64,000 bases of DNA from a virus: positions 1-64,000 of IMG/VR virus record IMGVR_UViG_3300020036_004192. The stretch is one strand, 5' to 3'. Both the position numbers and the translations under genes were made by a program. Under the pieces are notes generated by a model, which had not been told where the DNA came from, ran no database searches, and was given only the letters and a program-made list of their open reading frames with translations. The stretch's first letter is position 1; every line of letters begins with the position of its first letter. Shown here piece by piece: positions 31,106 through 55,854 of this stretch.

Positions 31106-31264
31106 TATCTCTCCGCTCTATTAACTAACTCTTGCCCTTGCTTGTAACCCTCATTATATGCTTTTTGTATATCAGAACGATATTCTCTGGGGCCGATACA
31201 AACAAGCATACCACAATTAATTAGACCGTACTTCTCCATAAAAGCTTCTGCTAATACCTCAGCC

Positions 31265-31528
31265 TTACTCATCATCTAATGCCCTGCATACACTGCACTT
31301 ATCTCCATATTTAGAAGAAACCCAAGTGTGGACATGAGCACCTAAGTCTCTAGCTGTAACTTCTATTTCTCTCCCAGCGTAGACTACATGCATAGAATCA
31401 AGTTCCGTGACATTAGTGTACCGAATGTGCTCCCGTACGTCAGCCAATTCGTCATTAAACTCGCCTCGGTCAAGTAGGTATAGAAGGGAACTACATGTAT
31501 CTGCAAGGAACCTTTCAGCTACCCCCAT
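31265..31528 (-). CDS. Hypothetical protein (87 aa)
   Basis: Sits between the AAA+ and vWA genes; ATGA overlap. Confidence 0.45.
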   Translation of the reverse strand: MGVAERFLADTCSSLLYLLDRGEFNDELADVREHIRYTNVTELDSMHVVYAGREIEVTARDLGAHVHTWVSSKYGDKCSVCRALDDE

Positions 31529-32703
31529 TATAGCTCTCCCTTAAATCCGTCCTTCATTACCCGAGTAGCAACCTCGTTAACCTTTGCGTCAGCAAGATCA
31601 ATAATCTCGGACTTGCGGCCTGACTCTTCGATCTTAGCGTGAAGTTCCTTAAGAGTGATCTTGGCCTTCTTAAGCTTCGTCCAGATTTCCACTGACTGAC
31701 TGGCAGCCTGGTTATCGTTATCTGCATCAGACAGAACCTTGTTAAGATCCTTATCCAGCTTCTCCACTCGCTCTAGAATATCTAGGGCTTCCTTCTCTAG
31801 AGGGTTAGCTAGCTCTAGGATAACACGCTCAGCCACTCTAGCATCTTCGGGCCGACCCCACATTACATGGCGTAGAATACGTAGGTCATCTACTTCGACC
31901 TCATCACGACCGTTCAGATAAGCCTCAGCCTGGATGATCGGCAGACATTCAGCGAACCGTCGCTCAGACGGCTCAATGCCCTTAGCTGCAAGGTCGTCAC
32001 GAAGGGCACGCATGATTTCTAGAATCTCTGTTGAGATTTTTACCTGCTTGACGCCTTCCTGTGCTTCCAGGATGTCATTCCAAGTCAGAAACTTCTCTAC
32101 ATCCTTCTGTGTTGTGCTGTTGTGGGTGTCAAGCATCCGAATGAAGTTCCCAGGCTCGTGAAGTGGGCCTACGTTAAACCGAAAATGCAATCTATCCCAA
32201 AGCGCCCATAGCCCATCATCTGCGGGCATCTCATTGGAGGCCGCAAAGATGGAGGATAGCGGCACACGTTCCTCATCTGCACCGTTGAAGAACAGTCTCT
32301 CGTTGGAGATGGTTAGCAGGGCGTTAAGAATAGACGAGTTGGCCTTGAAAATCTCATCTAGGAACGCAATAGCAGCGGTTGGAAGCTTGCGATCAGTTAC
32401 CCTAACATAGTTACCTTTCTCCATTTCAACAATAGAAGGCGGGCCGAGCACTTCCTCAGGGGTAGTGTACTTTGTTAGCAGCCACTGGAAGTAAGGATTG
32501 TCTAGGTGAGAGTCTGAGAAATCTACACGATCAACTAACTCACGAATCATATAGGACTTGCCTACACCGGGCGGGCCGATCATGAAGAAATGCTTCTGTG
32601 AAACTAGAGCATTCAGCATTGCATGAATTTCACGCTGACGTTCGAAAACGCTTTCGTTTAGGTCTGCTTCTAGAGCAGAGAACTTATCTGTTAAGGTTGT
32701 CAT
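31528..32703 (-). CDS. MoxR/CobS-like AAA+ ATPase
   Basis: Walker A IGPPGVGKSYM, Walker B AFLDEIFKA, sensor motifs, about 390 aa. Confidence 0.75.
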   Translation of the reverse strand: MTTLTDKFSALEADLNESVFERQREIHAMLNALVSQKHFFMIGPPGVGKSYMIRELVDRVDFSDSHLDNPYFQWLLTKYTTPEEVLGPPSIVEMEKGNYVRVTDRKLPTAAIAFLDEIFKANSSILNALLTISNERLFFNGADEERVPLSSIFAASNEMPADDGLWALWDRLHFRFNVGPLHEPGNFIRMLDTHNSTTQKDVEKFLTWNDILEAQEGVKQVKISTEILEIMRALRDDLAAKGIEPSERRFAECLPIIQAEAYLNGRDEVEVDDLRILRHVMWGRPEDARVAERVILELANPLEKEALDILERVEKLDKDLNKVLSDADNDNQAASQSVEIWTKLKKAKITLKELHAKIEESGRKSEIIDLADAKVNEVATRVMKDGFKGEL

Positions 32704-32713
32704 TTAGCTTCTT

Positions 32714-33073
32714 TCATACGAGTGTTGTCCAGTTTTCTCCACCGCTACATACGGCTAGAACTTTGAGTTGTTTATTTATGGCATGCATATTAATTACTTT
32801 ACTTCTAGCATCCCTGGGGTTAAACGCTACAACGTTCAAGTTTATTTCAACGTCACCTATCTTACAGTATACATCATATGGTCGCCCTTTGGCAAGGAAA
32901 ACTTTTAGAGCCTCTGGATCATTGTTATTCCCTTTATCCAGATAGTTTTTTAGGTCTTGTAGTGAGTTACCAAAGTTGAGTGCATCCCATTTGGATGATG
33001 CATACTTAGCTTTTTTGCCCTTAGAATGGTTTTTGTATTGTTTTGAATGTTTCGATCCGTCTTTTCTTGGCAT
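32714..33073 (-). CDS. Hypothetical basic protein (119 aa)
   Basis: Lys-rich N-terminus; tiled. Confidence 0.45.
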   Translation of the reverse strand: MPRKDGSKHSKQYKNHSKGKKAKYASSKWDALNFGNSLQDLKNYLDKGNNNDPEALKVFLAKGRPYDVYCKIGDVEINLNVVAFNPRDARSKVINMHAINKQLKVLAVCSGGENWTTLV

Positions 33074-33189
33074 TTGTCACATCGTAGTGGTGATGATACG
33101 AGCTAGTGCTGCGATTAAAGCATCGGCCTTCAAGATATTATTCACTTTACCCACGGCCCCTTCGAAAGCCCAAGCTAAATCTTTATAGG

Positions 33190-34326
33190 TCATACCAGTA
33201 CATCCTTATTTACTAGCTTAAGTGAACCAAAAGGATCTGGTTCCGACTTGTCATTACGGATTCTCATGAACGCAGGCTGATATAGCCGATTACTTTTCCC
33301 TACATATAAGTAGCGAATCTCAACGATGTCACCAATCTTTACCCTACGAAGATTAGTTGCGCTCATAGTGCAATTACCGATGGGGATATCGTCAGCACAC
33401 TCTAGGGAAATACTTGCCTGTTCATTAATGCCGGTCACTCTTAGGTCAGCCGTTTCAACGAACTTAAACTTAAGTAAGTTCGTTGTCCTTGCACCTGACT
33501 GGTATGGAGCAGTCATTCGTCTGGCAATTACGCCTTCTGAATTAGATGCGTCAACCTTATCTAAGAAATCTTCTTTATCCTTGGAGGTAAGATGCGAAGG
33601 GAGTTGCATGATGTGATTAGGTGCCCAATGATTGAAGATCGTGTTGAGGCAGTCTAATCTCATATGGTAAGTGGCGTCTTGAATGATATTAACACCGTTT
33701 GTGTTGATCACTTTGATTAGATCAAAGACATAATATTTGCGGTTAATATATTCACCATCGAATAGCCATACACCTTTAAAGAATTCTGGATTCGAGAACT
33801 CTTTAATCACAGGACGTAAAACTTTTACCTGGCGAGTGTATTCTTTACCATCCCTATTGTAGACGGTAACCGCTCCGTTGTCAACCTCGACTATCATTCT
33901 GTCTCCGTCAACTTTTTGCTGAAAGCAGAATGAGTTATCGCTGACTAGTTCCATTAGTCGTTCTTTGTCCATGGATTCTGCGAGCATTGGAAGATGCATT
34001 TTGAACTCTTCTAACGTTAAGTTATTCTTCTCTAGGTTGCATTTCTTGCAGGCTAGGCATAAGTTTTCTATAGCATCCGTACCTTGTCTGCTAATGGGGG
34101 TCTTGTGGTCAACAGTTAATGTTTCTTCGTTAAGTTCTTGTTTGCAGTAGAAACATTTGTTATCCTGCTGTTCTTTTAGGATTTTGATTTTAGTCTGAGA
34201 TATCTTCTTTCGCCTATGGATTTTGAATCCGCATCTGAGACAGAGGCGTCCGTCCCAATTGTGCTTCTTTTGTTTGCCACATGGCTGAAGATCATTCCAG
34301 GCTAATTGTCTATCCGCTATTGCCAT
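33190..34326 (-). CDS. Fusion protein: N-terminal HNH endonuclease/Zn-ribbon domain plus ATP-dependent DNA ligase (minimal NTase plus OB)
   Basis: HNH motif CFYCKQELNEETLTVDHKTPISRQGTDAIENLCLACKKCN. Ligase motifs I KVDGDR, III FDGEY, IV EGVIARR, V LLKFKF, VI IRNDK. Confidence 0.7.
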   Translation of the reverse strand: MAIADRQLAWNDLQPCGKQKKHNWDGRLCLRCGFKIHRRKKISQTKIKILKEQQDNKCFYCKQELNEETLTVDHKTPISRQGTDAIENLCLACKKCNLEKNNLTLEEFKMHLPMLAESMDKERLMELVSDNSFCFQQKVDGDRMIVEVDNGAVTVYNRDGKEYTRQVKVLRPVIKEFSNPEFFKGVWLFDGEYINRKYYVFDLIKVINTNGVNIIQDATYHMRLDCLNTIFNHWAPNHIMQLPSHLTSKDKEDFLDKVDASNSEGVIARRMTAPYQSGARTTNLLKFKFVETADLRVTGINEQASISLECADDIPIGNCTMSATNLRRVKIGDIVEIRYLYVGKSNRLYQPAFMRIRNDKSEPDPFGSLKLVNKDVLV

Positions 34327-34345
34327 TTTGTAAAGTTAGCATTTA

Positions 34346-34576
34346 TTACCATCCCACCCCAAAGAATTTATAGAAATCAGTTTTGATGTTATTATGGTCA
34401 GTTAGTTCAAGAATACTCCACGGTCCATCTGAATCACCAAATTTAATGACGCAATCAAATGTATTGGCGTCGTCTCTTTCAAACTTCATTTCAGTGATGC
34501 CATGTTTAACCATGTAAGTCATGATCTTCTCGGCTCGTCCCCAACTTCTACGGGCACGAAGATTCCTAATCCACAT
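34346..34576 (-). CDS. Hypothetical protein (76 aa)
   Basis: Tiled ORF. Confidence 0.4.
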   Translation of the reverse strand: MWIRNLRARRSWGRAEKIMTYMVKHGITEMKFERDDANTFDCVIKFGDSDGPWSILELTDHNNIKTDFYKFFGVGW

Positions 34577-34772
34577 CGTTTGGATCTTCGGCGTCTATGA
34601 ATTGTAATTGCGTTTTACTGAGGTTTTCCTCAGTAAGCTCGAATGTAACTTTATATACATTCGATAACATATACTTATTAGCAAAGTCTTCTGCGTTAGA
34701 GTGAAATATAAACAACTCGCTGTTAAGCGCATCAGTTTTGTTATCTCCTGCCACAAACATTTCTATTTTCAT
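34566..34772 (-). CDS. Hypothetical protein (68 aa)
   Basis: Tiled ORF. Confidence 0.4.
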   Translation of the reverse strand: MKIEMFVAGDNKTDALNSELFIFHSNAEDFANKYMLSNVYKVTFELTEENLSKTQLQFIDAEDPNDVD

Positions 34773-35107
34773 TAGCTAAACCAGTCTTTCATTTCATCCA
34801 TGATTTCTTGGCGCTTCTTACCGTCGTCTGCCTTTGCAGCCTGTGCAAAGCCACCCTGGATAATACTCATGAATTCAGCTTCAAGATCAGGATCAGATAC
34901 TACAACATTCTCATCTGCGGGAGAGAACTTCAAAGCGACCTGCGCCGTGTCCCCACCGTCAGGATCTTCATTCGGAATGATAGCCAACCCACCCAACTCA
35001 AATCCGTGCTTGGCAGCAAGTTCTTTGATGCGTTTCTGCAGAATGCGTAGCTTCTCTAGTGGGTCATTAGCCATGTCTAATCCTAATTTCTTCTTCAGTC
35101 TTTTCAT
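34772..35107 (-). CDS. Hypothetical protein (111 aa)
   Basis: Tiled ORF; ATGA overlap. Confidence 0.45.
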   Translation of the reverse strand: MKRLKKKLGLDMANDPLEKLRILQKRIKELAAKHGFELGGLAIIPNEDPDGGDTAQVALKFSPADENVVVSDPDLEAEFMSIIQGGFAQAAKADDGKKRQEIMDEMKDWFS

Positions 35108-35405
35108 TATATGCTTTTAACGCTTCTGCGTCAATTGCTTCTAATTCTTCGGTCTTATCTTGTTCGTCAACACGAGTATATTGGACTTCATTCCAGCCGT
35201 TAAAGAAGAATTCGATATTCTTGACATTGGCTCTCATAGGCATTTCTGGAGAATCTAATGCTGCCGCGATGCCCGCCCAGTAAGCATACCTTTGACTATG
35301 AACGATACATTCATATGTGTTTTTGATGTCTTTGAAAGTGCCATCAGTGAAAATATATCGTACCCCTGAGCCTTTCAATTCTGCGGATTTAATGTCACCG
35401 TTCAT
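35067..35405 (-). CDS. Hypothetical protein (112 aa)
   Basis: Tiled ORF. Confidence 0.45.
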   Translation of the reverse strand: MNGDIKSAELKGSGVRYIFTDGTFKDIKNTYECIVHSQRYAYWAGIAAALDSPEMPMRANVKNIEFFFNGWNEVQYTRVDEQDKTEELEAIDAEALKAYNEKTEEEIRIRHG

Positions 35406-35773
35406 GCTGTCAACTCTTTCATTACTTCAATGATTTCGGATAAACCACTACCCACCCAGATGGGCACAGGGTTACCTTTCTCAGTCACCCTGCAAAAATA
35501 GGACTTCTCGTTACCTTTTTCTAGTGGATCATACGTTACTCTGGCAAGTTTACCGTCAGCGCATACTATAAATAACACTAGCGGACCATGCCTGCTTGCC
35601 ATCGTGAACTTTAGGATATTATCCTGGTCTTTAAGCCCCTTAAGTAAAAAGAATAGGGCGCTGTATCCCCATTGGGGTTTCACTGATGAGCTAAACTTAT
35701 CCCATTCGGCGTTGTCATTGTAAAGTGCAAGTGCCCAATCAGATATCATTGCCCAACTCGCTTCTAGAAGCAT
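35402..35773 (-). CDS. Hypothetical protein (123 aa)
   Basis: Tiled ORF. Confidence 0.45.
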   Translation of the reverse strand: MLLEASWAMISDWALALYNDNAEWDKFSSSVKPQWGYSALFFLLKGLKDQDNILKFTMASRHGPLVLFIVCADGKLARVTYDPLEKGNEKSYFCRVTEKGNPVPIWVGSGLSEIIEVMKELTA

Positions 35774-35936
35774 AGATCATTGTGATAGGCCAAGCCATAC
35801 ACATAGCCCAAATTAAGATAAGCCCACCTACCGCATTTCCGGGTTGGGATTTTGAAAATCTATTCCTAAATGCAAATGTACAGTATACAAACCATGCGAC
35901 TGCAATAAGCAGGTACAACACTTTAACTATTACCAT
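35739..35936 (-). CDS. Small membrane protein (65 aa)
   Basis: Two hydrophobic segments. Confidence 0.4.
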   Translation of the reverse strand: MVIVKVLYLLIAVAWFVYCTFAFRNRFSKSQPGNAVGGLILIWAMCMAWPITMIYASRSELGNDI

Positions 35937-35938
35937 CT

Positions 35939-36835
35939 TTAAACCTCTACGTCTCTCGCTAGCCTAGCGCCGAGGGCTGTGATCTCTCTACCTCTGGCTT
36001 GACGTTCAATAAGCCCCTGCCTGATCAGATCAATTTCTAACTGGACTATAGCGCCTTCTGGGATACTCAGCATCATTTGCATAAGTTCCAATCCGGCCTG
36101 CCCACCGGCAGCTAGTAAGTTTTTAAGATACCTGATGTGTTCTACTGATAACCCTGTCTCTGTTATTCTTAGTGCATCTAGAATTTCTAAAGCAGAAGGC
36201 GAATTCCCATTCTGGTAGAATAAATCTCTAGCGACTGAAATAAAGCCATTGACATTTCGAGGGACACCAAGAGAAGCTTTCGCCAGCAATTCCAAGTCCA
36301 CCTCATTCATATATAGCATTTCTTTTTTCATCCCATTAGAAATGATTTGCATTATCTCTTGCTGGGTATAGGGGTCGAAGGTAGGGAGAATTCCTGCATT
36401 TTTGAACCGTTCATACAATGGCCGAATGATTTTATCACCTTCGGTGGTAGCGGCTACCACTGTAAGATTGTTATTGTCCCATCTATTACCTCTGTCGTCA
36501 AGGTAATAGTTATCTTCTATGAATGTTAGTAGACTTTCCTGCTGTCTCGGGTTGCTTCTATGGATTTCGTCAAAGAGGACAACACCTTCCTGGTTCTTTA
36601 CCACACGTTCTAGGATTCTTGGCTTAAGTGGCATGATGAAGTTTTCGAACGGTTGCCCCATCTCATTGGAGATGATCGAGGCCAGCGTTGTCTTGCCCAT
36701 TCCAGGACCAGAGACTAGTAGAACGTGTGGTAGATTCACGCCACGTTCTAACGATGATTGGATATGGAGTTGCAGTCTGTCTTTAAGACTCTCTTGTCCT
36801 ATATAGTCAGACCATGAAGTTGGTCTATGTGTCAT
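35939..36835 (-). CDS. ruvB: RuvB-like Holliday-junction branch-migration AAA+ ATPase
   Basis: YIGQ, LLVSGPGMGKTTLASIISNEMG, VLFDEIHR, VVAATT, GVPRNVNGFISVARD and a C-terminal winged helix, collinear with bacterial RuvB. Confidence 0.8.
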   Translation of the reverse strand: MTHRPTSWSDYIGQESLKDRLQLHIQSSLERGVNLPHVLLVSGPGMGKTTLASIISNEMGQPFENFIMPLKPRILERVVKNQEGVVLFDEIHRSNPRQQESLLTFIEDNYYLDDRGNRWDNNNLTVVAATTEGDKIIRPLYERFKNAGILPTFDPYTQQEIMQIISNGMKKEMLYMNEVDLELLAKASLGVPRNVNGFISVARDLFYQNGNSPSALEILDALRITETGLSVEHIRYLKNLLAAGGQAGLELMQMMLSIPEGAIVQLEIDLIRQGLIERQARGREITALGARLARDVEV

Positions 36836-36978
36836 TATTCTTTTTCAACGATTCACGCATTGTCTGTATGGCCTCTGTGATCTGCTCGCCACCTTCGTCT
36901 TCGTAATCTGCTTCATCCATTAGGATACGTTTCCAGGCACTGGCTGCACTAATAAGAGTCCATATCGCATCAACTTCT

Positions 36979-37170
36979 TTACGATTCATTATTCTGCCTG
37001 AGATAGTTTGAATTAGTATGTTGCCCGCCTGGGTCTACCGGAATTCCACGCAGATCGTCTACTGCATCTTTGACAAGGATAGATTCTTTCCATTGTCCGT
37101 TTCTTGCCAGTTCTGCCGCATAGTGCAGTAGTTCTGCTAAACGTTCGTCCGTGAAACGCGGTGTGGCCAC
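36979..37170 (-). CDS. Hypothetical protein (63 aa)
   Basis: Tiled ORF. Confidence 0.35.
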   Translation of the reverse strand: MATPRFTDERLAELLHYAAELARNGQWKESILVKDAVDDLRGIPVDPGGQHTNSNYLRQNNES

Positions 37171-37377
37171 TTAACCCTCTGATTTGTATACGTTTACCTG
37201 CACTGAAAGGGCAAGCAGTAGAGCTAGTGCCTCAGTTTCTGAGGTTGCAAAGATAGCTGATCGTGTAATGATCTTATTGCTATGATTGTCTGGCACTTCT
37301 CGTCCTGTTATGTCAGTGACTGAGTAGTTGACTCGGTTGTCGTCTGTTTCAAACGTTGTAATTAGGTATCTGTTCAT
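37171..37377 (-). CDS. Hypothetical protein (68 aa)
   Basis: Tiled ORF. Confidence 0.35.
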   Translation of the reverse strand: MNRYLITTFETDDNRVNYSVTDITGREVPDNHSNKIITRSAIFATSETEALALLLALSVQVNVYKSEG

Positions 37378-37763
37378 AATGCTACTTTCTGTAATAGTCT
37401 ACGAGACTGAACCATATTTACATATGCCTCATGCTGCTCTTTTGTTCTGGTTAGGATAGCGATAAGATCCTCTAACTCATGGTTATTTTCGAACTGAATT
37501 TCAATGGTTGTTGCTAGGGTTGATCCAGGGTAACGGCGTGGTACTATCTTAAGATAGAAACCGGCTGGGGATTCCCCATCGTTTTCTTGAATTTCTTCGT
37601 CACTTAGGTCATAAGCTATGAGGCCAGCTTCGTAGCCCTGCAGTCCACGTTGTTCGCTCTTGTTAGTTGTGAGTGTTTTCATTGCTTTCCTTTTAGTTGT
37701 GACAACTGTTGATTGCTCCGTCAATTGATCGAAGCAGTTCGTCTTTTTGCGACCAATGGTCAC
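37374..37763 (-). CDS. Hypothetical protein (129 aa)
   Basis: Tiled ORF. Confidence 0.45.
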   Translation of the reverse strand: MTIGRKKTNCFDQLTEQSTVVTTKRKAMKTLTTNKSEQRGLQGYEAGLIAYDLSDEEIQENDGESPAGFYLKIVPRRYPGSTLATTIEIQFENNHELEDLIAILTRTKEQHEAYVNMVQSRRLLQKVAL

Positions 37764-37935
37764 CTTGGTATAAGGAGGGGCCTTCTTTTAGCTTCTCAGC
37801 TTGGGCCTTGGCCTCATTAAGTAACGCTCTAATGGTAGCGCATTTATCGTTTTCAACTTCTCTACGAAGTTCCCTGGCCTGTTTTTCTAGCAGTGCAGCC
37901 TGGGTTAACCTTTCATCTTCAACGTTTATCACCAT
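37693..37935 (-). CDS. Hypothetical coiled-coil protein (80 aa)
   Basis: Tiled ORF. Confidence 0.35.
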   Translation of the reverse strand: MVINVEDERLTQAALLEKQARELRREVENDKCATIRALLNEAKAQAEKLKEGPSLYQGDHWSQKDELLRSIDGAINSCHN

Positions 37936-38249
37936 TCACCTCCATAATCTTCATACGCACGAACGGCTGGGACGATATTCGGGAAACGTCCGCCCCCTCG
38001 GCATATATCACCGATCCGATGCGCATGATACGCAGAATTGCATACGTCCCATCGTAAAACCCATCTGCTACCTAAATATTCATATACAGCCACTCGATAG
38101 TATGAGCCTGGCATTAACGGGTCTACAGATAACACTAAGTGAAACTCTCCACGCTCATCGTCAGAGTGAGTTATACTTGCCACAACGACCCCATCAATTC
38201 CTGGCTCAGTGCAGCCTGGCTGTGGCAGTCGAGGGTGATTGCCCATCAC
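37929..38249 (-). CDS. Hypothetical protein (106 aa)
   Basis: Tiled ORF. Confidence 0.4.
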   Translation of the reverse strand: MMGNHPRLPQPGCTEPGIDGVVVASITHSDDERGEFHLVLSVDPLMPGSYYRVAVYEYLGSRWVLRWDVCNSAYHAHRIGDICRGGGRFPNIVPAVRAYEDYGGEW

Positions 38250-38458
38250 AGCAGATTCTTGCCTTCCAAGTCAAGGAACTTTCTTCTGTCATGCAACCAG
38301 TCACATTTTAGATCATGTTTAGACTTAAAGATAGTCTTCCGGTTGAACACAAAGTATGTTCCAACATATGAGGGGAGATGATTGGGGTCCCCGTAGAGCC
38401 TACGTGTGCCTATGAATTTTCCGTATCTTAAATCACGGATTCTATCTGAGATTTTCAT
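38246..38458 (-). CDS. Hypothetical protein (70 aa)
   Basis: Tiled ORF. Confidence 0.35.
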   Translation of the reverse strand: MKISDRIRDLRYGKFIGTRRLYGDPNHLPSYVGTYFVFNRKTIFKSKHDLKCDWLHDRRKFLDLEGKNLL

Positions 38459-38476
38459 ATACCCTTGTCTCCGACT

Positions 38477-38800
38477 TTAAACATTTTCTCCCCTACGTTT
38501 CTGTATAGCCGCATCAAAAGCTATTGCTTCTTCTATCCTTTTGTTAACGGCAGCGTTACCGAATCGGTTAGCAATTTTCTGTAAAGTTTGAGAATCAGTG
38601 GCCCAAGATTCTGGTGGGATTGACCCGTCTAGAAGTGCAGCCTGAATTGCTAACTCGTATTGATGGTACAGATGTAACCCACTATTATCAGACTCTCCGC
38701 ACACGCAATTGTCCCATAGCCAGGAAGGGAAGTGTTTTCTAGAAACGGCTAATAAGATTCCTGCTATAGTATTTGGATCGGGGTCAAGCTGGGCAGTCAT
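38477..38800 (-). CDS. Hypothetical protein (107 aa)
   Basis: Tiled ORF. Confidence 0.4.
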   Translation of the reverse strand: MTAQLDPDPNTIAGILLAVSRKHFPSWLWDNCVCGESDNSGLHLYHQYELAIQAALLDGSIPPESWATDSQTLQKIANRFGNAAVNKRIEEAIAFDAAIQKRRGENV

Positions 38801-39062
38801 CTTCTACCTCCACTGGACGTTCTGACTTGACTAACCTAAGGAACATTGGTTCCCTGGGCAGGTTCTTGTCTTCTAGTTCTTCTAGGATGGAAGCTAGTGT
38901 TCCGTCTAGTGAGTCTCCACCTGTATCTTTAATGTACTTTTCGATAGCTAAGCATGCTGTTTGGAACAGCAGAGTTGGCTCATGATGTTGTAGTTTGGAT
39001 TTGATTCTAATGTCGTCGTTCAGTTTAATTTTCATAGCATTCCTAAATCGTGTAGCGTTCAC
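38784..39062 (-). CDS. Hypothetical protein (92 aa)
   Basis: Tiled ORF. Confidence 0.4.
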   Translation of the reverse strand: MNATRFRNAMKIKLNDDIRIKSKLQHHEPTLLFQTACLAIEKYIKDTGGDSLDGTLASILEELEDKNLPREPMFLRLVKSERPVEVEDDCPA

Positions 39063-39097
39063 TAAATTGACGTTCGCTTAGGGCATACACATAAATC

Positions 39098-39292
39098 TTA
39101 GCTCTCATGCAGGCAGGATCTGTGTTGGCAATGACAGGTGTAGATCTGTTTCTGAATGAGGTCGCCACGACGTAATAAACTTAGTAAAGTGTTGGACGAA
39201 TAGCCTCTGTATTCCGGTCCCTCTGGTGGGCCATAGTTGCTAATCTCATTTAATGCATTCTGCTGTGCCCGGCTTCTAACGGTCATGCCCAT
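39098..39292 (-). CDS. Hypothetical protein (64 aa)
   Basis: Tiled ORF. Confidence 0.35.
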   Translation of the reverse strand: MGMTVRSRAQQNALNEISNYGPPEGPEYRGYSSNTLLSLLRRGDLIQKQIYTCHCQHRSCLHES

Positions 39293-40065
39293 TGTCCTTT
39301 AATAGATAGATCTTTAGTGTCCAAGATGGCCATTGAGTTAGGCACACCATCACACCCTAGACCATACACATCACCGTACTGTATTTCATCTTTATAACGA
39401 TACAAGTCACCGTATTGTAATTTATCTTTGTAACAGTAATGATAGTGTCCATGGACTAGAATTTTAGGTTTCACTTTATCGTAAATCTCATAGAGTCTCA
39501 TTCGATTGCCCCATGATGACCTGATTAGCCTATCGGGCCATGTAAATTCTGTCTGATTTAAATATGTTCGCAAGGTGCCGGTTAGTTCAGGGCAGTCATG
39601 TGTTAATAGAATATCTACTGGTTCTTCTGTGACTTTACGTACTTGTACGTCTGTAATGGCTTCCTGTGGGAACCAGGAGATAAAGTGTACTCTAGAATCT
39701 TGATCCACAGATGTTGCTCCACCGAACGACATGAATTTCACGCCGTCTATGTTAAATCTGTAACCTCGGGGTAGGTAGTAGACTCTACTTTGAAGTTGTG
39801 TGATTGTCAAATTTTCTGTGTTTGCACCTAACCTGTTTAGCAGGTCAAAGTTTTCGTGGTTACCGTCTAGGAAGAACATTGTCTTCTTGGATTCTGTCAA
39901 CATGTCATTTAGCTTGTTGAACTTGCTGAGGTCATCGTCTTTCCAGATGAATCCAAAGTCCCCTAATTGAATAATTAGGTCAATATTTTCTTCTGTTGCG
40001 GCTTCAATAACTTGACTGGCTGAGTCTAGTTGTCCATGCAGGTCGCCTGCTAGAAGAATTCTCAA
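39283..40065 (-). CDS. Calcineurin-like metallophosphoesterase
   Basis: ILLAGDLHGQ (GDxHG), IQLGDFG (GDxxDRG-like), DGNHEN (GNHE) and the HGHYH motif. Confidence 0.7.
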   Translation of the reverse strand: MRILLAGDLHGQLDSASQVIEAATEENIDLIIQLGDFGFIWKDDDLSKFNKLNDMLTESKKTMFFLDGNHENFDLLNRLGANTENLTITQLQSRVYYLPRGYRFNIDGVKFMSFGGATSVDQDSRVHFISWFPQEAITDVQVRKVTEEPVDILLTHDCPELTGTLRTYLNQTEFTWPDRLIRSSWGNRMRLYEIYDKVKPKILVHGHYHYCYKDKLQYGDLYRYKDEIQYGDVYGLGCDGVPNSMAILDTKDLSIKGQWA

Positions 40066-40403
40066 CTAAACACACCTCGTTTACCATTTGGTAAATCTAC
40101 GATATCATCGTCTGTCCATTCCATTGAGCACCCATCAGGTCCAATAACAAAAGAAACATAATGCGTCTTATGTGGCCCTCGTTGTTCGCATTTCGCTGTT
40201 GACTGATGACCTGGCCCGCAGAAGACTACTGCTTCACATGGAATACGATATGTACGTTCTGCACACACGGCTTCATAGTATTTCTTTTCAAAAAAAGTAA
40301 ACCATGCATACTTTTTTAGGGCATCGATTTCTGCGTCTAGATCATCTTTTGTTAGTGTTCTAAGACTAGTTAGTTCGGTACGAATTAAGTCTTGTTCAGC
40401 CAT
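40062..40403 (-). CDS. Hypothetical protein (113 aa)
   Basis: Tiled ORF. Confidence 0.4.
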   Translation of the reverse strand: MAEQDLIRTELTSLRTLTKDDLDAEIDALKKYAWFTFFEKKYYEAVCAERTYRIPCEAVVFCGPGHQSTAKCEQRGPHKTHYVSFVIGPDGCSMEWTDDDIVDLPNGKRGVFS

Positions 40404-40788
40404 CTAAAGTCTCCAAGCATCGTTTAAGTTGATCTATTACAATCTGTTTTGAATCTGACTCCCACCATGATTCAGAATCATCAAGGCCATCTTCCATATA
40501 TAGTTTTTGCTGATTGGCCAAGACTAACAGCAGCCTGGCGAACTCTCCACGCAATCCAAGTAGTGAATGAAGAAAGGTTGACAATTCTTCTTCTGTAATA
40601 TAATCAGTCGTGGACGGCCAGATTCTGCTAACCTCATCCCAGTCAGCAGTAATAATAGCCCATAGCGGCAGCCTTGATTTTCCTGCTGTAATTGATCCAG
40701 CCATTCTGCCGTCATGTACTACAAGACCAGGATAAAGTCCTTCCGTCTCTTCATATGGGGTACGCCAGATTTCGTCGTATTCGGTCAC
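40396..40788 (-). CDS. Hypothetical protein (130 aa)
   Basis: Tiled ORF. Confidence 0.4.
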   Translation of the reverse strand: MTEYDEIWRTPYEETEGLYPGLVVHDGRMAGSITAGKSRLPLWAIITADWDEVSRIWPSTTDYITEEELSTFLHSLLGLRGEFARLLLVLANQQKLYMEDGLDDSESWWESDSKQIVIDQLKRCLETLDG

Positions 40789-41045
40789 GAATTTCCTATT
40801 TCTAGTAACTGAGCTATGAGCGTTTCGAAAGATACATCTACTGTTAGACTGTAAGTTTTCCGGCTTGCCTTGTAACTAATAACAACATTGGGAGAATCGT
40901 AGCCCCAGGTGTATTCACTCATTTCATAGGGGCCACAGTTCCCAAACTCTACTCCGGTGATTTCAAAGTCAGCCTGTGGCTTCTTGATAGTTAGAACCTG
41001 ATGCCTAGCCCACTTGTCTTGGGCTTCTTCCCATGTTAATGTCAT
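40785..41045 (-). CDS. Hypothetical protein (86 aa)
   Basis: Tiled ORF. Confidence 0.4.
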   Translation of the reverse strand: MTLTWEEAQDKWARHQVLTIKKPQADFEITGVEFGNCGPYEMSEYTWGYDSPNVVISYKASRKTYSLTVDVSFETLIAQLLEIGNS

Positions 41046-41046
41046 T

Positions 41047-41229
41047 TTATTCCCCCTCTAATGATTTGATGGCAGTTGAAAGCGATACAACTAAGTCCCC
41101 ATTATCTAGTTCCACCAGATAAACAAGTGTTTGGTTGATGTCTACTATCTTGCCAGTAAATCCAGAAGGTCTATGGATAACCTTATCTCCAACAGCTCTT
41201 TTAATCATATTAGGCACCGAACCCTTCAA
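41047..41229 (-). CDS. Hypothetical protein (60 aa)
   Basis: Tiled ORF. Confidence 0.35.
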   Translation of the reverse strand: MKGSVPNMIKRAVGDKVIHRPSGFTGKIVDINQTLVYLVELDNGDLVVSLSTAIKSLEGE

Positions 41230-41983
41230 GGATGCTCAGGAGGCTGTCTACGGGTGTTGTAGGGGCCTCTCGTGGCAACTCAGAACCACTAAGCTCTGCG
41301 TCTAACTGTTCAGAACGTTCACGGTATGCGTTTCTGTACTGTGAAGCATCAAAGTCTACTGTTACACGGTCAATCATCTGCATGGCTGCATCGTAATGTT
41401 CCTGTGGAAGTTCCACACTCACACCTTCAAGTTCTGTTACCTCATCGGGCCACAGCAGTTTCTGTACTACAATCTGGTTGCGCCATGTTGTTAGCCGCCA
41501 GAATCCTTCTGTGGTACGTACCTTGCACATGCCAACGAATGCCTTGTCTGAGTCTGAAACCATCTTTAAAACTAGGCCATGATATTCGTCTGCAATGTTA
41601 GGCACGAACACATATGAGCCTTCCGCAAAGAATGTTGATCCTTCAATTTCTTTACGTGGATGAATGGTTGTGCGTAGAACGTTCTCAGGTAGAGTTGATG
41701 TCCTTACTTCTGCAACATCTTCTACTGACACCTTGACTAGTTCTTCTTCGCCTTCATTATTAAGGACAACACGTGCCCGAGCTAATTGTCCTCGGGTCCA
41801 TGAGCCTGTGCCTTCGGGCGTCTGATACACTTGCTGAACCCTCGTTGGGGGTTCAATGTCGGGTGCGATTGAAACGAATTCACGGTATTCGTTTCGGTTC
41901 GGTAGGGTGATATTGAATAGTCTTCCAGTCAGGCTGATTGGTCCTAGCTGGATTGTGAAGTTTGCTACGTGCGCTCTAGGCAT
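41210..41983 (-). CDS. ku: Ku-like DNA end-binding protein (NHEJ)
   Basis: Collinear similarity to bacterial/mycobacteriophage Ku. FVGMCKVRTTEGFWRLTTWRNQIVVQKLLWPDEV matches the Ku core (...VHTLLWPDEIR), and DRVTVDFDASQYRNAYRERSEQL matches the Ku C-terminal helix. 257 aa. Confidence 0.7.
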   Translation of the reverse strand: MPRAHVANFTIQLGPISLTGRLFNITLPNRNEYREFVSIAPDIEPPTRVQQVYQTPEGTGSWTRGQLARARVVLNNEGEEELVKVSVEDVAEVRTSTLPENVLRTTIHPRKEIEGSTFFAEGSYVFVPNIADEYHGLVLKMVSDSDKAFVGMCKVRTTEGFWRLTTWRNQIVVQKLLWPDEVTELEGVSVELPQEHYDAAMQMIDRVTVDFDASQYRNAYRERSEQLDAELSGSELPREAPTTPVDSLLSILEGFGA

Positions 41984-42150
41984 TTAATCACTTTCGTATT
42001 CGATCCAACGTACTGTTGAGTATTTATGATTCATTCTATCAGTAGTGTCAAGCTCTTTCTTTAGTGCCTCTAAAGCAGGTCTATCTCCACGAGCTATTGC
42101 ATTACGGAGGGTGAATCCAAAGCATGCCGTATCCGCATACAGTATATGCA

Positions 42151-42561
42151 CTAATCTTCCTCTGCCATTTGGCCTATAAGTATAGATCCCAATTCTGCAA
42201 TATCAAGGAATGCTTCACCGTGACAGAAGTAATGCCAGGCTGCCTCAGTGGAGGTTGCCATTGTGGCATGCCGTGTCATTACGATAGGAACCGTATCCGC
42301 TTCAATATGAACCTCTACTTGCGGTACAACCCATGCGTCGTCTACGAATTCAGGCATTCCTGAATGAACTAGATTAATGTTTTTTAGTTCACAGTTACCG
42401 TAGTCCAACAACTTAAGAAGGGCGTCAATTGCTAGAAGCTTAATTAGCTCTTCCCTGCCTTGCCTGGAACTTTCTCTCTCTAACTGTACTGTAGATACTT
42501 TTACTGTTTCTGATGCTTTCATTATTGCTACTTCTTTTAAAGATGTATTTGTGTCTGCCAT
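42151..42561 (-). CDS. Hypothetical protein (136 aa)
   Basis: Tiled ORF. Confidence 0.4.
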   Translation of the reverse strand: MADTNTSLKEVAIMKASETVKVSTVQLERESSRQGREELIKLLAIDALLKLLDYGNCELKNINLVHSGMPEFVDDAWVVPQVEVHIEADTVPIVMTRHATMATSTEAAWHYFCHGEAFLDIAELGSILIGQMAEED

Positions 42562-43076
42562 TATTTGCTAGAAATCTTTCTTGGGTTAGAGTATGCTTTC
42601 TCCCATGATTCAACTCTTTCAGGGAGTTTTTCATTCAAAGTTAGAGCCTCAATAAGTAGATGACTGGCAGGTCTAGCAGGATATGCTCGCCGTAATGTCT
42701 TAGTCTTAAGTCCTGACGGCTTTATAATCATGCTAACTTCTTCTTCCTTGTCGAAGCATCCATACTTATAGTTGTCATAACTTACATCAATGTTCTTTAG
42801 ATTAACCCAGATGAGAGCGTCGTCTACTTCTCTACCAACGACCAGCCATCTTTGATTCTTCTTTGATACTAAAACATCGCCTTTCCACAAGACTCGGGCA
42901 GGTAGCTTACTGATTTTGTACTTCTTCTTGTTATACCACTCTTCATCTATCGACTTGTAGTATTCTTTGAATGCGGGAACATAGTCAGGTGAAAGCGGGC
43001 ACCAGTTGGGGTGCTCGAAGGTTTTATGGGCTAGTGGGCTTTCTTCTTTTGTTATGTCACAACACCATGTTGTCAT
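42561..43076 (-). CDS. Hypothetical protein (171 aa)
   Basis: Tiled ORF. Confidence 0.45.
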   Translation of the reverse strand: MTTWCCDITKEESPLAHKTFEHPNWCPLSPDYVPAFKEYYKSIDEEWYNKKKYKISKLPARVLWKGDVLVSKKNQRWLVVGREVDDALIWVNLKNIDVSYDNYKYGCFDKEEEVSMIIKPSGLKTKTLRRAYPARPASHLLIEALTLNEKLPERVESWEKAYSNPRKISSK

Positions 43077-43312
43077 TTGTATCTCATCTCATCGTTAGAA
43101 ACCTGGGTCCAGATCTGGCGGTTCGGTCGGCGCACAATGCGGGCAAGTTTTCGGGTTGCGTGTGCAGGGGAGATAGCTCCTTCGAAAGTTCCGCCCGTTC
43201 GGCGGTCCCCATCTAGGATAGACCAAGCCCAGAGGTTCCAAGCGTCATAACCCGCTCCGTTGCTTCGGATACGGCGAAGTTGAATGAGTGGTTCCTGATG
43301 AACAACAATCAT
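43073..43312 (-). CDS. Hypothetical protein (79 aa)
   Basis: Tiled ORF. Confidence 0.35.
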   Translation of the reverse strand: MIVVHQEPLIQLRRIRSNGAGYDAWNLWAWSILDGDRRTGGTFEGAISPAHATRKLARIVRRPNRQIWTQVSNDEMRYK

Positions 43313-43773
43313 TATTGTCTCCTGAATATGTCTTTAACGTTACTAAGAATAGTTGAAGCAGGAAGAGGAACCGGCATCACAGGGGAATAAGTCTTCTTTA
43401 CTGACCTGTATCCATGATAAGAGTCCCATCCATGTCTATTATTCCAGAACATATCGTAATCCTCTTCATCATCATATCCGCCATCTGCGAACTGCTGGTA
43501 GCCTTCTCTGTCTTTAATGTCATCGTAGTCATCAGTTTTAGGACAATAGATTTGCACGCCCTCATCGAAATGAAAAAACATAACATCCCTGTGCCCATGA
43601 GGACCTTTAGCCGAAATAGCTACAGTCGGGAGTGGAGTGTTTTCAAGCTTCTCGACATCTTCAACATACATTATCTCGTCTTTGTGGACGATGAAGTCCC
43701 CTTCGACTACCTTGTATGCATCTATCTCAAAAACGAATTCCGGTTCAATAGTTGACTCATTGATTTCGATCAA
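43312..43773 (-). CDS. Hypothetical acidic protein (153 aa)
   Basis: Tiled ORF. Confidence 0.45.
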   Translation of the reverse strand: MIEINESTIEPEFVFEIDAYKVVEGDFIVHKDEIMYVEDVEKLENTPLPTVAISAKGPHGHRDVMFFHFDEGVQIYCPKTDDYDDIKDREGYQQFADGGYDDEEDYDMFWNNRHGWDSYHGYRSVKKTYSPVMPVPLPASTILSNVKDIFRRQ

Positions 43774-44507
43774 GACCCTTCTGCGTCGTCAGAGTTCCTG
43801 CTGTAAAGGACCGCTCCGTTTCGGTTGAAAGCTTCTGCATAGAACCCTCTGGATAGGAGGAAAATCTGTGCAGCAATGTTCGTTCGCCCAACCCAGAGCT
43901 TAAGCGGGGTAGAGGAATCAGATACAAGTAACGTCCCAATGCCAGACCTACGAACCTGGGGGTGAACTGTAAGGACAGTTTTCCCCGGCCAAGAAATTCG
44001 CATGCCAATGATTCCACCAAACTTTATTTCGGATTCATCATCGTAGTGGTAAGGGATTTGGGCTACAGATATTTGCGGCAGGTCAGCGGTTGTCCCATCG
44101 TGTGCATTGTCTGAGATATACGCAATTGCGTTTAGCGTAGCTGGGGAATACCTGCTAGCTGTCTGTCGAAAGAACGAGTACGCTTGGGAGGCGTACTGCA
44201 GGTATGATGACCTGTCGGAATTGTAGGTGCATGTCACAAGGTTGAGGTCTTGTGGCAGGTCTGGCAGCCTAGGGGGATGTTCAATATCAGTAGCCGATGA
44301 CAGGATTGTTTGGTTTACTCTGCGCTGTAAAAGCTCGCTTGCCTGTTCGGCTCTAGTTCTAGATCGTGCTGTTGTTGGCATATAATACGCTCTTTCTTCT
44401 GTCGTAGGATGTAGGGTTAATAGACGCTCAAGCTGCTCATCTATGGCAGATGCAGAGAGGGCAAAATCATGTGGGGTAGTTGTAGTAAAAGTGTAGTTAC
44501 GTGGCAT
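43770..44507 (-). CDS. GNAT-fold (acetyltransferase-like) protein
   Basis: Motif A-like VHPQVRRSGIGTLLV in the C-terminal half; adjacent to an amidoligase-like gene. Confidence 0.45.
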   Translation of the reverse strand: MPRNYTFTTTTPHDFALSASAIDEQLERLLTLHPTTEERAYYMPTTARSRTRAEQASELLQRRVNQTILSSATDIEHPPRLPDLPQDLNLVTCTYNSDRSSYLQYASQAYSFFRQTASRYSPATLNAIAYISDNAHDGTTADLPQISVAQIPYHYDDESEIKFGGIIGMRISWPGKTVLTVHPQVRRSGIGTLLVSDSSTPLKLWVGRTNIAAQIFLLSRGFYAEAFNRNGAVLYSRNSDDAEGS

Positions 44508-44509
44508 AT

Positions 44510-45469
44510 CTACCTGCTAACCTGATAGAAATCAGTCCACCCATAGTTTGCACTATTCTGATATGCAATCTGCTTACCCATCAACTCCCCAAGTCGTTCA
44601 TCTCTTGCGCCAACTAGAGGATGAAGGACCGCAAGAGCCTCGTCCGGGTCTGAGGGCACCTCTACGTCTTTCAGGTTACTCATGAACTCGTAGTTCCCTA
44701 ACAACAGAGACATTTTGGCATACATTTCCCAACGCCAAGCTGAGCGTGTAGAATTCCACACTCTAAACTCCCAAGTGTCGTGACGTGTGCGGATTGCAAG
44801 ATTCGAGTGCCTGTCCGCTTCATAATGATTGTTGAATAGGTTAGCTAGCCACCATTCCCTAGTTGCCCCTCTAGGCTGACCAACCTCGACCTCTAAGGTG
44901 CTGGGCAGGGCGTCAATCTTTTTAACGTACTCACTGAACCCGGATAGCTCTCTTCTCCTAGCTTCCCCCTCTGGGGCATAATCGTACCATAGGGTGTGAA
45001 GGTTATACAGGTTTGATTCCTGAACTGACGTATTCATCGGACGGAGGCCAGGGAATCTTCCATTAGCCAGCCGGATGACTGCATCCTCCCACCGCATAAA
45101 CTGCCATAATAACTCATGGCACTGTAGAAAGTTTTCTGTAACTGGGACAACGTGAACATGAACGCCAGCGTTTGTTCCAGGCACAGCGTCAACTTCGACA
45201 GCGACTTCCTGAAGACAGTCTAGAACCTCTACAAATTCAGAGAACTCGTTTTCGTTGAAGACTTTTGTGATTAGCTCTCCAGAACAACTAGAGTCACGTT
45301 GCGCTCTTAGGGTCACAGTGCGACTCATGCAGTTGTTGCAGTCACAGTGGTATGAGTGTAATGAATCTGAGGGCAGAAGCTCAGGGTAAAGCATGTGCGT
45401 CTTCTCTACGAGAAGTTCAGCATTGTCCTGAAATTCGATTTCCATTCCAAAAGTGGTCAATAGTCCCAC
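44510..45469 (-). CDS. Phage amidoligase-like protein (paralog 1)
   Basis: Shares GxHVHV and EFRVWNSTRSAWRWE signature blocks with the 49170..49985 paralog; family assignment by recall of the phage amidoligase family, not verified. Confidence 0.45.
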   Translation of the reverse strand: MGLLTTFGMEIEFQDNAELLVEKTHMLYPELLPSDSLHSYHCDCNNCMSRTVTLRAQRDSSCSGELITKVFNENEFSEFVEVLDCLQEVAVEVDAVPGTNAGVHVHVVPVTENFLQCHELLWQFMRWEDAVIRLANGRFPGLRPMNTSVQESNLYNLHTLWYDYAPEGEARRRELSGFSEYVKKIDALPSTLEVEVGQPRGATREWWLANLFNNHYEADRHSNLAIRTRHDTWEFRVWNSTRSAWRWEMYAKMSLLLGNYEFMSNLKDVEVPSDPDEALAVLHPLVGARDERLGELMGKQIAYQNSANYGWTDFYQVSR

Positions 45470-46095: not shown

Positions 46096-46102
46096 TTTTT
46101 CC

Positions 46103-55683: not shown

Positions 55684-55685
55684 GA

Positions 55686-55853: not shown

Positions 55854-55854
55854 G

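Follow-up and report, generated by a model that had tools for sequence, protein, structure and literature searches.

Gene content of the replication/recombination region

The 64,000-nt window analysed here (positions 1 to 64,000 of IMG/VR record IMGVR_UViG_3300020036_004192) belongs to an uncultured tailed phage with a large genome (at least 130 kb). In the replication/recombination region of this phage, a conserved set of genes encodes a homodimer-type Ku, an AAA+ motor of the RuvB family and a minimal ATP-dependent DNA ligase with two domains. All three are encoded on the minus strand: Ku (257 aa) at 41210..41983, the RuvB homologue (298 aa) at 35939..36835, and the ligase, preceded in the same polypeptide by an HNH module (378 aa in total), at 33190..34326. 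The phage also encodes a DnaE polymerase, a primase-helicase, RecA, Sak4 and a PD-(D/E)XK nuclease. There are two intein-like insertions, one in DnaE and one in the primase-helicase, and a possible second HNH-like ORF, a weak match, lies elsewhere in the genome.

The RuvB ORF matches Pfam RuvB_N at 2e-24 and RuvB_C at 2.5e-11, the C-terminal winged helix included. Residues 3–291 match solved RuvBs at 1e-26, which amounts to a full-length match, while the next AAA+ family reaches only 3e-6. No match to the RuvA or RuvC families was found among the scanned ORFs, of which the small ones were covered only in part. The first-pass annotation had reported two phosphoesterases between the Ku and ligase genes, but there is only one, a calcineurin-type metallophosphoesterase (39283..40065, minus strand; Metallophos, 1e-15) situated between Ku and RuvB; a second ORF with a weak Metallophos match is found beyond this interval, at 25683-26507 on the plus strand. 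Since relatives lack the metallophosphoesterase between Ku and ligase, its link to the Ku/ligase module is unproven. A 111-aa ORF just upstream of the ligase (34772..35107, minus strand) is weakly conserved in three related contigs (L007, L009 and L010), and its membership of the module is uncertain. The remaining ORFs of the Ku–ligase interval gave no family matches.

A divergent Ku of the phage-type subfamily

Because the sequence of the ORF at 41210..41983 is divergent, we assign it to its family by profile and by fold. Alone against Pfam, the ORF gives no match at E ≤ 0.1 and does not pass the Pfam Ku model; it matches PHROG 4873 ('Ku-like') at 1.2e-6, and phmmer against the PDB aligns it with bacterial Ku (8v53/9i91) at ~1e-5, with LLWPDE placed on LLWPDE. 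An exhaustive HMMER search retrieved 464 relatives of ~260–280 aa. The family profile matches solved bacterial Ku over its full length (positions 15–261) at 6e-27, and PF02735 is matched by 24 of 54 family members.

The AlphaFold model of the ORF has a pLDDT of 94.3 and a pTM of 0.81. It has the Ku beta-barrel/bridge fold: Foldseek ranks the Ku proteins of M. tuberculosis and B. subtilis highest, with TM values reaching 0.77 and E between ~1e-11 and 1e-12, and the model also matches the predicted structure of mycobacteriophage Dylan Ku. The window Ku shares its core fold and its LLWPDE region with the Ku proteins of bacterial Ku–LigD systems. In addition, a D-LL-x2-L-x2-F motif at its C-terminal end can be aligned with the C-terminus of M. 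tuberculosis Ku, although a loose version of it occurs in only 20 of 54 relatives, and a CxxC..C..H zinc-ribbon-like insert carried by 22 of 54 relatives has been lost from the window protein. A tblastn search with the window Ku found no deposited phage Ku, because its sequence is too divergent. We regard this ORF as a divergent but genuine Ku of the phage-type subfamily with very little room for doubt, in accordance with its first-pass assignment.

A complete minimal ATP-dependent DNA ligase

The ligase module occupies residues 110–378 of the fusion protein (33190..33999, minus strand) and comprises a nucleotidyltransferase (NT) domain and an OB domain, with motifs I (K138), III, IIIa, IV, V and VI. 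Specifically, we find K138-VDGDR, FDGE, EGV(IARR), LLKFKF and RIRNDK, so that the complete motif set claimed in the first pass is indeed present; K138, E264, G265 and K288 vary little or not at all in the family alignment. The ORF matches PF01068 at 5.6e-20. Residues 110–375 are modelled at a pLDDT of ~90, and 50 of 50 among the Foldseek matches listed are DNA ligases, the best being T4 ligase, the LigD ligase domain, LigIV and archaeal ligases (E~1e-15). An identity as RNA ligase or capping enzyme is ruled out by the DNA-ligase fold and by the Pfam scores (72 bits for DNA_ligase_A_M versus 27 bits, under its cutoff, for mRNA_cap_enzyme). That the module is a complete minimal ATP-dependent DNA ligase is, in our judgement, practically certain. 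Its orthologues are conserved near Ku. The phage does bring its own ligase, as had been proposed.

The 378-aa protein consists of HNH and ligase core only and is not a LigD, because the AEP polymerase and phosphoesterase domains of LigD are absent. No AEP or LigD-PE family was detected in the scanned window ORFs (about 45 of the 64 of at least 120 aa and several shorter ones), and the 'LigD' names given automatically by JGI to relatives reflect the ligase domain only. In architecture, the module is closer to minimal LigC/LigE-type or Chlorella-virus-type ligases than to LigD.

An HNH module fused in frame to the ligase

The HNH module (residues 1–109; 34000..34326, minus strand) shares one uninterrupted reading frame with the ligase and is joined to it by a linker of ~5–8 residues; residue M110 sits at most one residue from the start position of standalone orthologous ligases. 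The Pfam HNH core (PF01844, beta-beta-alpha-Me) is matched by residues 58–102 (nt 34021-34155) at 2e-10, with 41–44 bits against a cutoff of 21.4. The module is of the HNN/[CxxC]2 type, with zinc ligands C58, C61, C93 and C96 and catalytic residues D73-H74, N88 and N97. In an alignment to 4h9d, the counterparts in Gmet_0936 are C38, C41, C73 and C76, and D53, H54, N68 and N77, respectively, the roles of which are taken from PMC3765158. Residues 1–101 have a pLDDT below 50 in the structure model, because the alignment lacks depth over this segment.

The fusion is genetic and not an annotation artefact. Five JGI contigs carry the identical HNH-ligase protein, and at the DNA level a 2.2-kb contig obtained from another sample shows 100% identity, which rules out an assembly artefact. 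With the HNH intact, in frame and joined by a short linker, production of a bifunctional protein is almost certain, and this protein could have acquired a function. No other HNH-ligase fusion was found in a word-limited search of 5.8 billion proteins or in scans of viral, metagenome and genome sequences; in all searches, the combination occurs in one phage only.

Ku and ligase recur together in related phages, with an HNH present only sporadically

In seven distinct contigs (the window, L004, L007, L009, L010, L020 and L050), Ku lies upstream of the orthologous ligase on the same strand, 0.9–6.9 kb away, in a sample that is small and mostly ascertained through the ligase. A true RuvB homologue is found near Ku in nine distinct contigs and is the most constant neighbour of the Ku family, with an order that varies (before or after Ku). 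The linkage of Ku and ligase and the recurrence of RuvB indicate that a phage-borne set of Ku and ligase, with RuvB, is conserved; the pairing is consistent with a two-component end-joining set. The Ku–ligase spacing of 1–7 kb persists despite protein identities of ~30–40% and local rearrangements. The whole region, however, is syntenic across related phages (amidoligase/GATase ... RuvB, Ku, ligase ... MoxR/VWA), so that Ku and ligase may lie close together by common descent and not because they are functionally coupled. In L006 and L011 the ligase is present, and no Ku occurs in the sequence fetched for either.

The orthologous ligases are all standalone proteins of 267–275 aa. Among nine orthologous loci that keep Ku and/or ligase, an HNH lies directly 5′ of the ligase in three (the window, L004 and L010) and is absent from six. 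In L004 and L010 it is a free-standing PF13392 HNH_3 gene of the homing-endonuclease type that overlaps or abuts the ligase start. The window HNH is unrelated to these, is fused in the window only and resembles ~120-aa free-standing phage HNH genes. The locus thus presents sporadic occupancy of one site by different HNH families. Within the ligase family, a sister branch carries an N-terminal WGR fusion, with no Ku within 8 kb of the WGR-ligase genes, consistent with targeting of the ligase to breaks by alternative partners.

Relation to known systems

The mycobacteriophage Ku proteins of Corndog and Omega (Cluster O/J) are, like the window Ku, phage-encoded and of the homodimer type. Corndog/Omega Ku reportedly uses host LigD as the ligase for genome circularisation. 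In contrast, the window lineage keeps a phage ligase 1–7 kb downstream of Ku. For Cluster O phages, an AAA ATPase is listed adjoining Ku (PMC4351075), reminiscent of the RuvB neighbour in the window phage; the word 'ligase' is absent from the text of that genome paper, and where it cites Pitcher 2006 it attributes end joining to the NHEJ pathway. As summarised in PMC8136500 (citing Bhattacharyya 2018), phage Mu Gam, a Ku-family end binder, promotes joining with E. coli LigA. This arrangement likewise combines a phage Ku-family end binder with a ligase lacking NHEJ-specific domains, but Gam uses a host NAD-dependent ligase, whereas the window protein is Ku-type and best matches Ku, not Gam.

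The WGR-fused ligases (NT-OB_2-WGR cluster, Williamson & Leiros 2020; Tunturiibacter phage Tunturi_5 gp61) belong to the same family as the window ligase (28–35% identity) and also bear an accessory domain, placed N-terminal to NT; in the window it is an HNH nuclease, and the WGR loci differ further in having no neighbouring Ku. Free-standing phage HNH homing endonucleases (HNH_3/I-HmuI-like) and Gmet_0936-type HNN nickases share the catalytic motif and the [CxxC]2 zinc site with the window HNH. Such phage genes also lie beside a conserved replication gene and are sporadic among relatives, but in the window the endonuclease frame runs into that of the ligase with no stop codon between them, giving one polypeptide.

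Origin of the HNH module

The sporadic presence of the HNH, the two families at one site, the fusion in the window only, the retention of M110 and the other selfish elements of the genome together make the module best read as a homing-endonuclease gene, a pattern that would be the signature of mobility and not of a built-in end-processing tool. The module would represent a small HNN-type gene, catalytically intact by its residues and of a kind found free-standing in phages, at the site immediately 5′ of the ligase that unrelated HNH_3 homing endonucleases occupy in two relatives; in the window phage its reading frame would have merged with that of the ligase. We think it probable that a mobile endonuclease gene gave rise to the HNH and that selection for end processing played no part. 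Nucleotide-level comparison yielded no close relative in which the insertion boundaries could be mapped, and composition and Shine-Dalgarno analysis favoured neither reading. The first-pass annotation had itself raised an independent homing endonuclease joined by an annotation artefact; our reading comes close to this, except that the fusion is no artefact.

That annotation proposed an adaptive bifunctional enzyme, in which the HNH stands in for the phosphoesterase/nuclease of LigD by nicking or trimming ends that are damaged or blocked, the ligase seals them, and the fusion makes with Ku a self-contained NHEJ kit. Gmet_0936, the closest solved HNH, nicks DNA weakly, with a preference for AP-damaged substrates, and has been proposed to act in repair (PMC3765158), which fits an end-cleaning role and counts against a mobile gene. 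The intact catalytic and zinc residues, the continuous frame confirmed in an independent assembly, the Ku–ligase linkage in seven contigs and the tolerance of the ligase family for N-terminal domains such as WGR point the same way. Against this, the HNH is missing from six of the nine loci, is elsewhere a separate gene of an unrelated homing-type family, is fused in a single phage across all searches and resides in a genome rich in other selfish elements, and we consider a selected end processor improbable. The HNH may alternatively have been co-opted, nuclease-active or not, as a DNA-binding module that targets the ligase, analogous to the N-terminal WGR that many relatives carry at the equivalent position; among minimal NT+OB ligases, dependence on an added DNA-binding element is frequent (PMC7470946). 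The nearest orthologues, however, have no N-terminal domain, the retained catalytic residues argue against a purely structural role, and the L004/L010 pattern points to mobility, which leaves this proposal highly improbable.

Function of the Ku–ligase set

We infer an NHEJ function for the Ku–ligase set. Ku would thread onto phage DNA ends, either the termini of the linear genome after injection or breaks that host nucleases introduce, and would protect and align them, and the phage's own ligase would seal them. Such a scheme would work like mycobacterial Ku/LigD or Mu Gam/LigA, without dependence on a host ligase, and nicks left by replication are probably sealed by this ligase too. Alternatively, the phage may have no end joining at all: the ligase would be a replicative nick sealer, like T4 gp30 or T7 gp1.3, Ku alone would shield ends from host exonucleases, like Mu Gam, and gene proximity would be inherited synteny. 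A replicative ligase is expected in a phage that also encodes a DnaE polymerase, a primase-helicase, RecA, Sak4 and a PD-(D/E)XK nuclease; regional synteny and the two loci with ligase but no Ku in the fetched sequence agree with it. So does the lack of a second DNA ligase in the 64-kb window, although the contig runs on for about 66 kb beyond it. Yet Ku is kept 1–7 kb upstream through sequence divergence and RuvB rearrangement, and the sister clade has a break-sensing WGR domain in place of a Ku neighbour. We find this alternative rather unlikely and lean slightly towards cooperation of Ku and ligase in end joining.

Of the kit proposed in the first pass, the Ku/ligase pairing, which recurs together with RuvB, is supported, and the HNH finds no support as its end-processing component. 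Our favoured explanation as a whole, a conserved Ku/RuvB/ligase set with the HNH as a merged mobile gene, has about an even chance of being correct. A more elaborate reading, to which we give little credence, joins Ku, a RuvB-type hexameric motor and the ligase in one autonomous three-part machine independent of host LigD, with the HNH nickase exapted in the window phage for cleaning damaged ends; RuvB could then act on Ku-bound DNA, for instance by stripping the topologically trapped Ku ring after sealing or by driving synapsis of the ends.

A divergent phage Ku

The open reading frame at 41210–41983 (minus strand) encodes a 257-aa product whose identity as Ku is secure, being supported by PHROG, PDB, profile and fold matches. 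The product alone has no match among Pfam families. It matches the PHROG 'Ku-like DNA end binding' family at 1.2e-6, and solved bacterial Ku proteins match it at ~1e-5, with its LLWPDE motif placed on the LLWPDE of mycobacterial Ku. An exhaustive HMMER search returned 464 relatives, nearly all of 255–285 aa, the size of bacterial Ku. A profile of 54 relatives, 24 of which individually match Pfam Ku, aligns with solved M. tuberculosis-type Ku over essentially its whole length (6e-27) and with B. subtilis Ku (6e-20). The structural model of the window Ku predicted by AlphaFold2 from the family alignment has a pLDDT of 94.3; in a Foldseek search, M. tuberculosis Ku and B. subtilis Ku (TM 0.77 on target) lead, followed by eukaryotic Ku70/80, while a viral structure library yields the Ku of mycobacteriophage Dylan and a Ku homologue of an uncultured phage. 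The profile match, the model and the fold search thus bear out the first-pass annotation, which had read this frame as Ku, and the protein models as Ku.

The Pfam Ku model used in published surveys, each of which reports only ~11 Ku-bearing phages found by that model or by OrthoDB, does not detect the window Ku, which is a member of a divergent subfamily missed by simple Pfam annotation. A tblastn search of deposited phages with the window Ku gave no match, and megablast of a 9-kb region against the same phages gave no DNA-level match, so no cultured relative is at hand. In the family alignments, 22 of the 54 relatives carry a zinc-ribbon-like insert (CxxC...C..[HC]) near the N-terminus; in the window Ku, at residues ~40–65, all of its ligands are lost (APDI...T..GT).

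A minimal DNA ligase

The frame at 33190–34326 (minus strand) encodes a 378-aa product containing an HNH domain (PF01844) and an ATP-dependent DNA ligase (PF01068). Both this frame and that of Ku lie where first described, inside a long run of minus-strand genes. The ligase adenylation domain is matched at 5.6e-20, and PHROGs assigns the product to ATP-dependent DNA ligase (6e-34) and HNH endonuclease (1e-23). Ligase motifs I (K138-VDGDR), III (FDGE), IV (EGV), V (LLKFKF) and VI (RIRNDK) are present and conserved across the family alignment, in agreement with the complete motif set originally claimed, and residues 110–375 are modelled at a pLDDT of about 90; residues 1–101, the HNH part, over which the alignment has no depth, stay below 50. 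Every one of the 50 fold matches listed is a DNA ligase, with T4 ligase, the LigD ligase domain, LigIV and archaeal ligases at the top (E~1e-15); the enzyme is not an RNA ligase. The product has no AEP polymerase or phosphoesterase domain and is therefore not a LigD; its ligase module is a minimal NT+OB ligase.

The ligases most closely related to it are 32–35% identical, stand alone at 267–275 aa and reside in syntenic phage regions with RuvB, MoxR and VWA neighbours. Relatives further removed have a WGR domain at the N-terminus, an architecture already on record in the ligase literature (PMC7470946). A scan of genome contigs found only a degraded ligase fragment without motif I, in an Ilumatobacter MAG.

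Origin of the HNH fusion

The HNH domain (residues 58–102, PF01844 at 2e-10) precedes the ligase in one continuous reading frame, as the first-pass annotation had noticed. An independent assembly of the locus (L002) has no polymorphisms relative to the window. Five JGI contigs encode the identical protein, and one of these, 2.2 kb long and from another sample, matches at 100% DNA identity; therefore, the fusion is not an assembly or annotation artefact.

Ligase-homologous sequence starts at residue ~109–110, and M110 ('MHLPMLAES') lies within one residue of the starts of orthologues ('MEIRPMLSHS', 'MNLKPQLAED'). Among nine orthologous ligase loci with visible upstream sequence, three have an HNH gene directly 5′ of the ligase (the window and the relative loci L004 and L010). 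The window HNH (residues 1–109) belongs to PF01844 and is fused in frame; the other two are separate PF13392 HNH_3 frames, one of 173 aa overlapping the ligase start (L004) and one of 147–157 aa abutting it (L010), and both also match a homing-endonuclease zinc-binding loop model. Among the ligase relatives compared, the window protein is the only one with HNH on the ligase, and the nearest matches of its HNH are small HNH genes that stand alone in temperate phages. Two homology-search matches to the HNH region (H10 and H11) were rejected as fusions, being small free-standing HNH genes whose extension into the ligase is spurious; Tunturi_5 gp61, which had been aligned into the HNH region, was also rejected, since Pfam and BLASTP detect no HNH in it and its N-terminus resembles WGR.

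Other candidate selfish elements reside in the window. The DnaE-type polymerase (3556–7740, plus strand) has an intein-like insert of ~300 aa at residues ~246–547, with an intein splicing domain match of 2e-5, below the Pfam cutoff, and tblastn against phage DnaEs breaks into two alignments, one on each side of the insert. The DnaG-primase/DnaB-helicase fusion (12205–15153, plus strand) has a central insert at residues ~370–760, probably an intein with a homing endonuclease; its PHROGs label 'terminase' is a mislabel, given its LAGLIDADG_3 and Hom_end matches. A second, weak HNH-like frame (7972–8706, plus strand; PF01844 4.8e-4, HNH_3 1.7e-3), between dnaE and a PD-(D/E)XK nuclease gene, may be another free-standing homing endonuclease.

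Such a pattern, with a single site occupied only sporadically and by endonucleases of unrelated families, and with many selfish elements elsewhere in the genome, is characteristic of homing-endonuclease genes. The fusion is thus most likely a selfish-element accident; in the simplest reading, a homing-endonuclease gene would either have dropped its stop codon or have inserted in frame, and so come to be co-translated with the ligase. The suspicion that the HNH could be an independent homing endonuclease joined to the ligase by an annotation artefact therefore probably holds for its homing origin, given the three of nine sites occupied, and fails for the artefact, given the five contigs. Alternatively, the fusion may have gained a function. 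In an alignment with Gmet_0936 (PDB 4h9d), the closest solved HNH relative, four zinc cysteines and D-H/N/N all match, and the active site looks intact at the level of sequence; Gmet_0936, the roles of whose residues have been described, is a weak nickase preferring AP-damaged DNA (PMC3765158). However, HNH is not a conserved component of the Ku-ligase set. The earlier idea that the fused HNH could supply end processing is disfavoured by its presence at three of nine loci, in unrelated families, and by its fusion in the window only, and a designed end-processing module should not be assumed.

Composition (GC and GC3) is uniform between the HNH and ligase parts and most genes have no Shine-Dalgarno motif, so neither composition nor Shine-Dalgarno scoring of internal Mets is informative. 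A Shine-Dalgarno match, even of 4–5 nt, precedes only 5 of the 17 gene starts examined among the minus-strand genes of 29537–47551, and the scarcity of such motifs may hint at a host with weak Shine-Dalgarno usage.

Ku, RuvB and the ligase in related phages

In seven distinct contigs (the window, L004, L007, L009, L010, L020 and L050), Ku and the ligase share a strand, with Ku upstream across a gap of 0.9–6.9 kb. Four other contigs with Ku relatives are too short to show whether a ligase follows. Between the two genes in the window lies a RuvB homologue (35939–36835, minus strand), whose match of 1e-26 to solved RuvB upholds the initial assignment. RuvB is found within a few kb of Ku, before or after it, on nine distinct contigs (loci named: the window, L004, L005, L009, L045, L046, L048, L049, L050 and L051), and is the most constant neighbour of this phage Ku family, more constant than the ligase. 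RuvB is weightier than the first-pass annotation implied. This arrangement suggests a possible partnership between Ku and an AAA+ motor; an AAA ATPase is also listed next to Ku in Cluster O mycobacteriophages (PMC4351075). Of the two phosphoesterases proposed between Ku and the ligase, one is recovered (39283–40065, minus strand; Metallophos 1e-15), and the second is not, as the remaining frames have no family matches.

In the loci fetched, no Ku lies within 8 kb of a WGR-ligase. The WGR-fused branch is without Ku at this distance, whereas the standalone branch is Ku-linked (loci L018–L034, and L003, which is Tunturi_5 gp61), so that Ku and WGR look like a complementary pattern. At one further locus (L006), WGR is encoded by a separate gene and no Ku is in view.

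These linkage patterns are consistent with a phage-borne functional set of Ku and ligase, perhaps with RuvB. Nevertheless, synteny across the lineage extends over the whole region, amidoligase/GATase through MoxR/VWA; therefore, proximity of Ku and ligase alone is weak evidence of coupling. The role of the ligase may be partly or wholly that of a replicative ligase.

Smaller genes accompany the pair at some loci. A PF09414 'RNA_ligase'-family nucleotidyltransferase of 206–213 aa lies between Ku and the DNA ligase at L049 (11064–11684) and L050 (11344–11985). The gene for a weakly conserved protein of ~105 aa (24–30% identity) closely precedes that of the ligase in four phages (window 34772–35107, minus strand; L007 2702–3064; L009 6842–7165; L010 1338–1652).

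Gene content of the window

The window is clearly phage DNA, with genes for an endolysin, a DnaE-type polymerase, Sak4, a primase-helicase, a class II ribonucleotide reductase, an Rnl1-like RNA ligase and five tRNAs. Its DnaE is ~42% identical to the DnaEs of Streptomyces and Saccharomonospora phages. A recombination cluster (8681–12197, plus strand) encodes a PD-(D/E)XK nuclease (4.9e-21), a Sak4-like annealing protein (4e-41) and RecA (4.6e-122), and homologous-recombination machinery, including a bona fide RecA, is thus encoded alongside Ku in the same phage. Two genes upstream of the Ku region (44510–47551, minus strand), one Amidoligase_2-like and one for a class II glutamine amidotransferase, are conserved also at L004 and L048 and may form a peptide or metabolite modification system. 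A MoxR-type AAA+ ATPase (bpMoxR 1e-42) is paired with a VWA-domain protein (29537–32703, minus strand); the pair is conserved downstream of the ligase at L004, L007 and L050. The stretch 55079–63697 (minus strand) resembles a gene set for supplying and repairing tRNAs, with four tRNA genes, a T4 Rnl1-like RNA ligase (56706–57809, minus strand) and a CCA-adding/poly(A) polymerase-family enzyme (62975–63697, minus strand); the fifth tRNA gene, tRNA-Met, is at 19995–20069.

Discussion

To our knowledge, the characterised phage Ku proteins have the host's ligase as partner; Corndog/Omega Ku was reportedly used with host LigD (Pitcher, 2006). Known phage Ku proteins include those of mycobacteriophages Corndog and Omega. 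Corndog, which has 4-base overhangs, apparently recircularises by non-homologous end joining aided by its own Ku (PMC4351075, citing Pitcher 2006); the Cluster O genome description in that paper makes no mention of a ligase. Mu Gam, the other known phage case, is partnered by E. coli ligase (PMC8136500). In contrast to these cases, which rely on a host ligase, the window lineage conserves a phage ligase near Ku, and, unlike LigD, this ligase has no AEP polymerase and no phosphoesterase domain. A non-exhaustive literature search found no description of a phage Ku with a phage ligase module, which is absence of evidence only. The same search found no HNH-ligase fusion, again absence of evidence only, in line with the first-pass remark that the combination is not known to have been described, and 'HNH' is absent from the text of a comprehensive review of ligase architectures (PMC7470946).

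The first-pass observation of Ku and an HNH-fused ligase is confirmed, and its interpretation as a self-contained end-joining kit is half right. The HNH-ligase fusion, as far as comparative sequence analysis suggests, mainly illustrates a selfish endonuclease gene merging with an adjoining essential gene. The set of Ku, RuvB and minimal ligase conserved in this uncultured phage lineage would represent a variant of two-component end joining, of modest novelty, that merits testing. If true, a phage lineage conserving its own Ku, ligase and RuvB would possess a compact, host-independent end-joining set, which would bear on genome circularisation in large phages and on phage survival of restriction or CRISPR cuts, and could provide a small portable end-joining tool.
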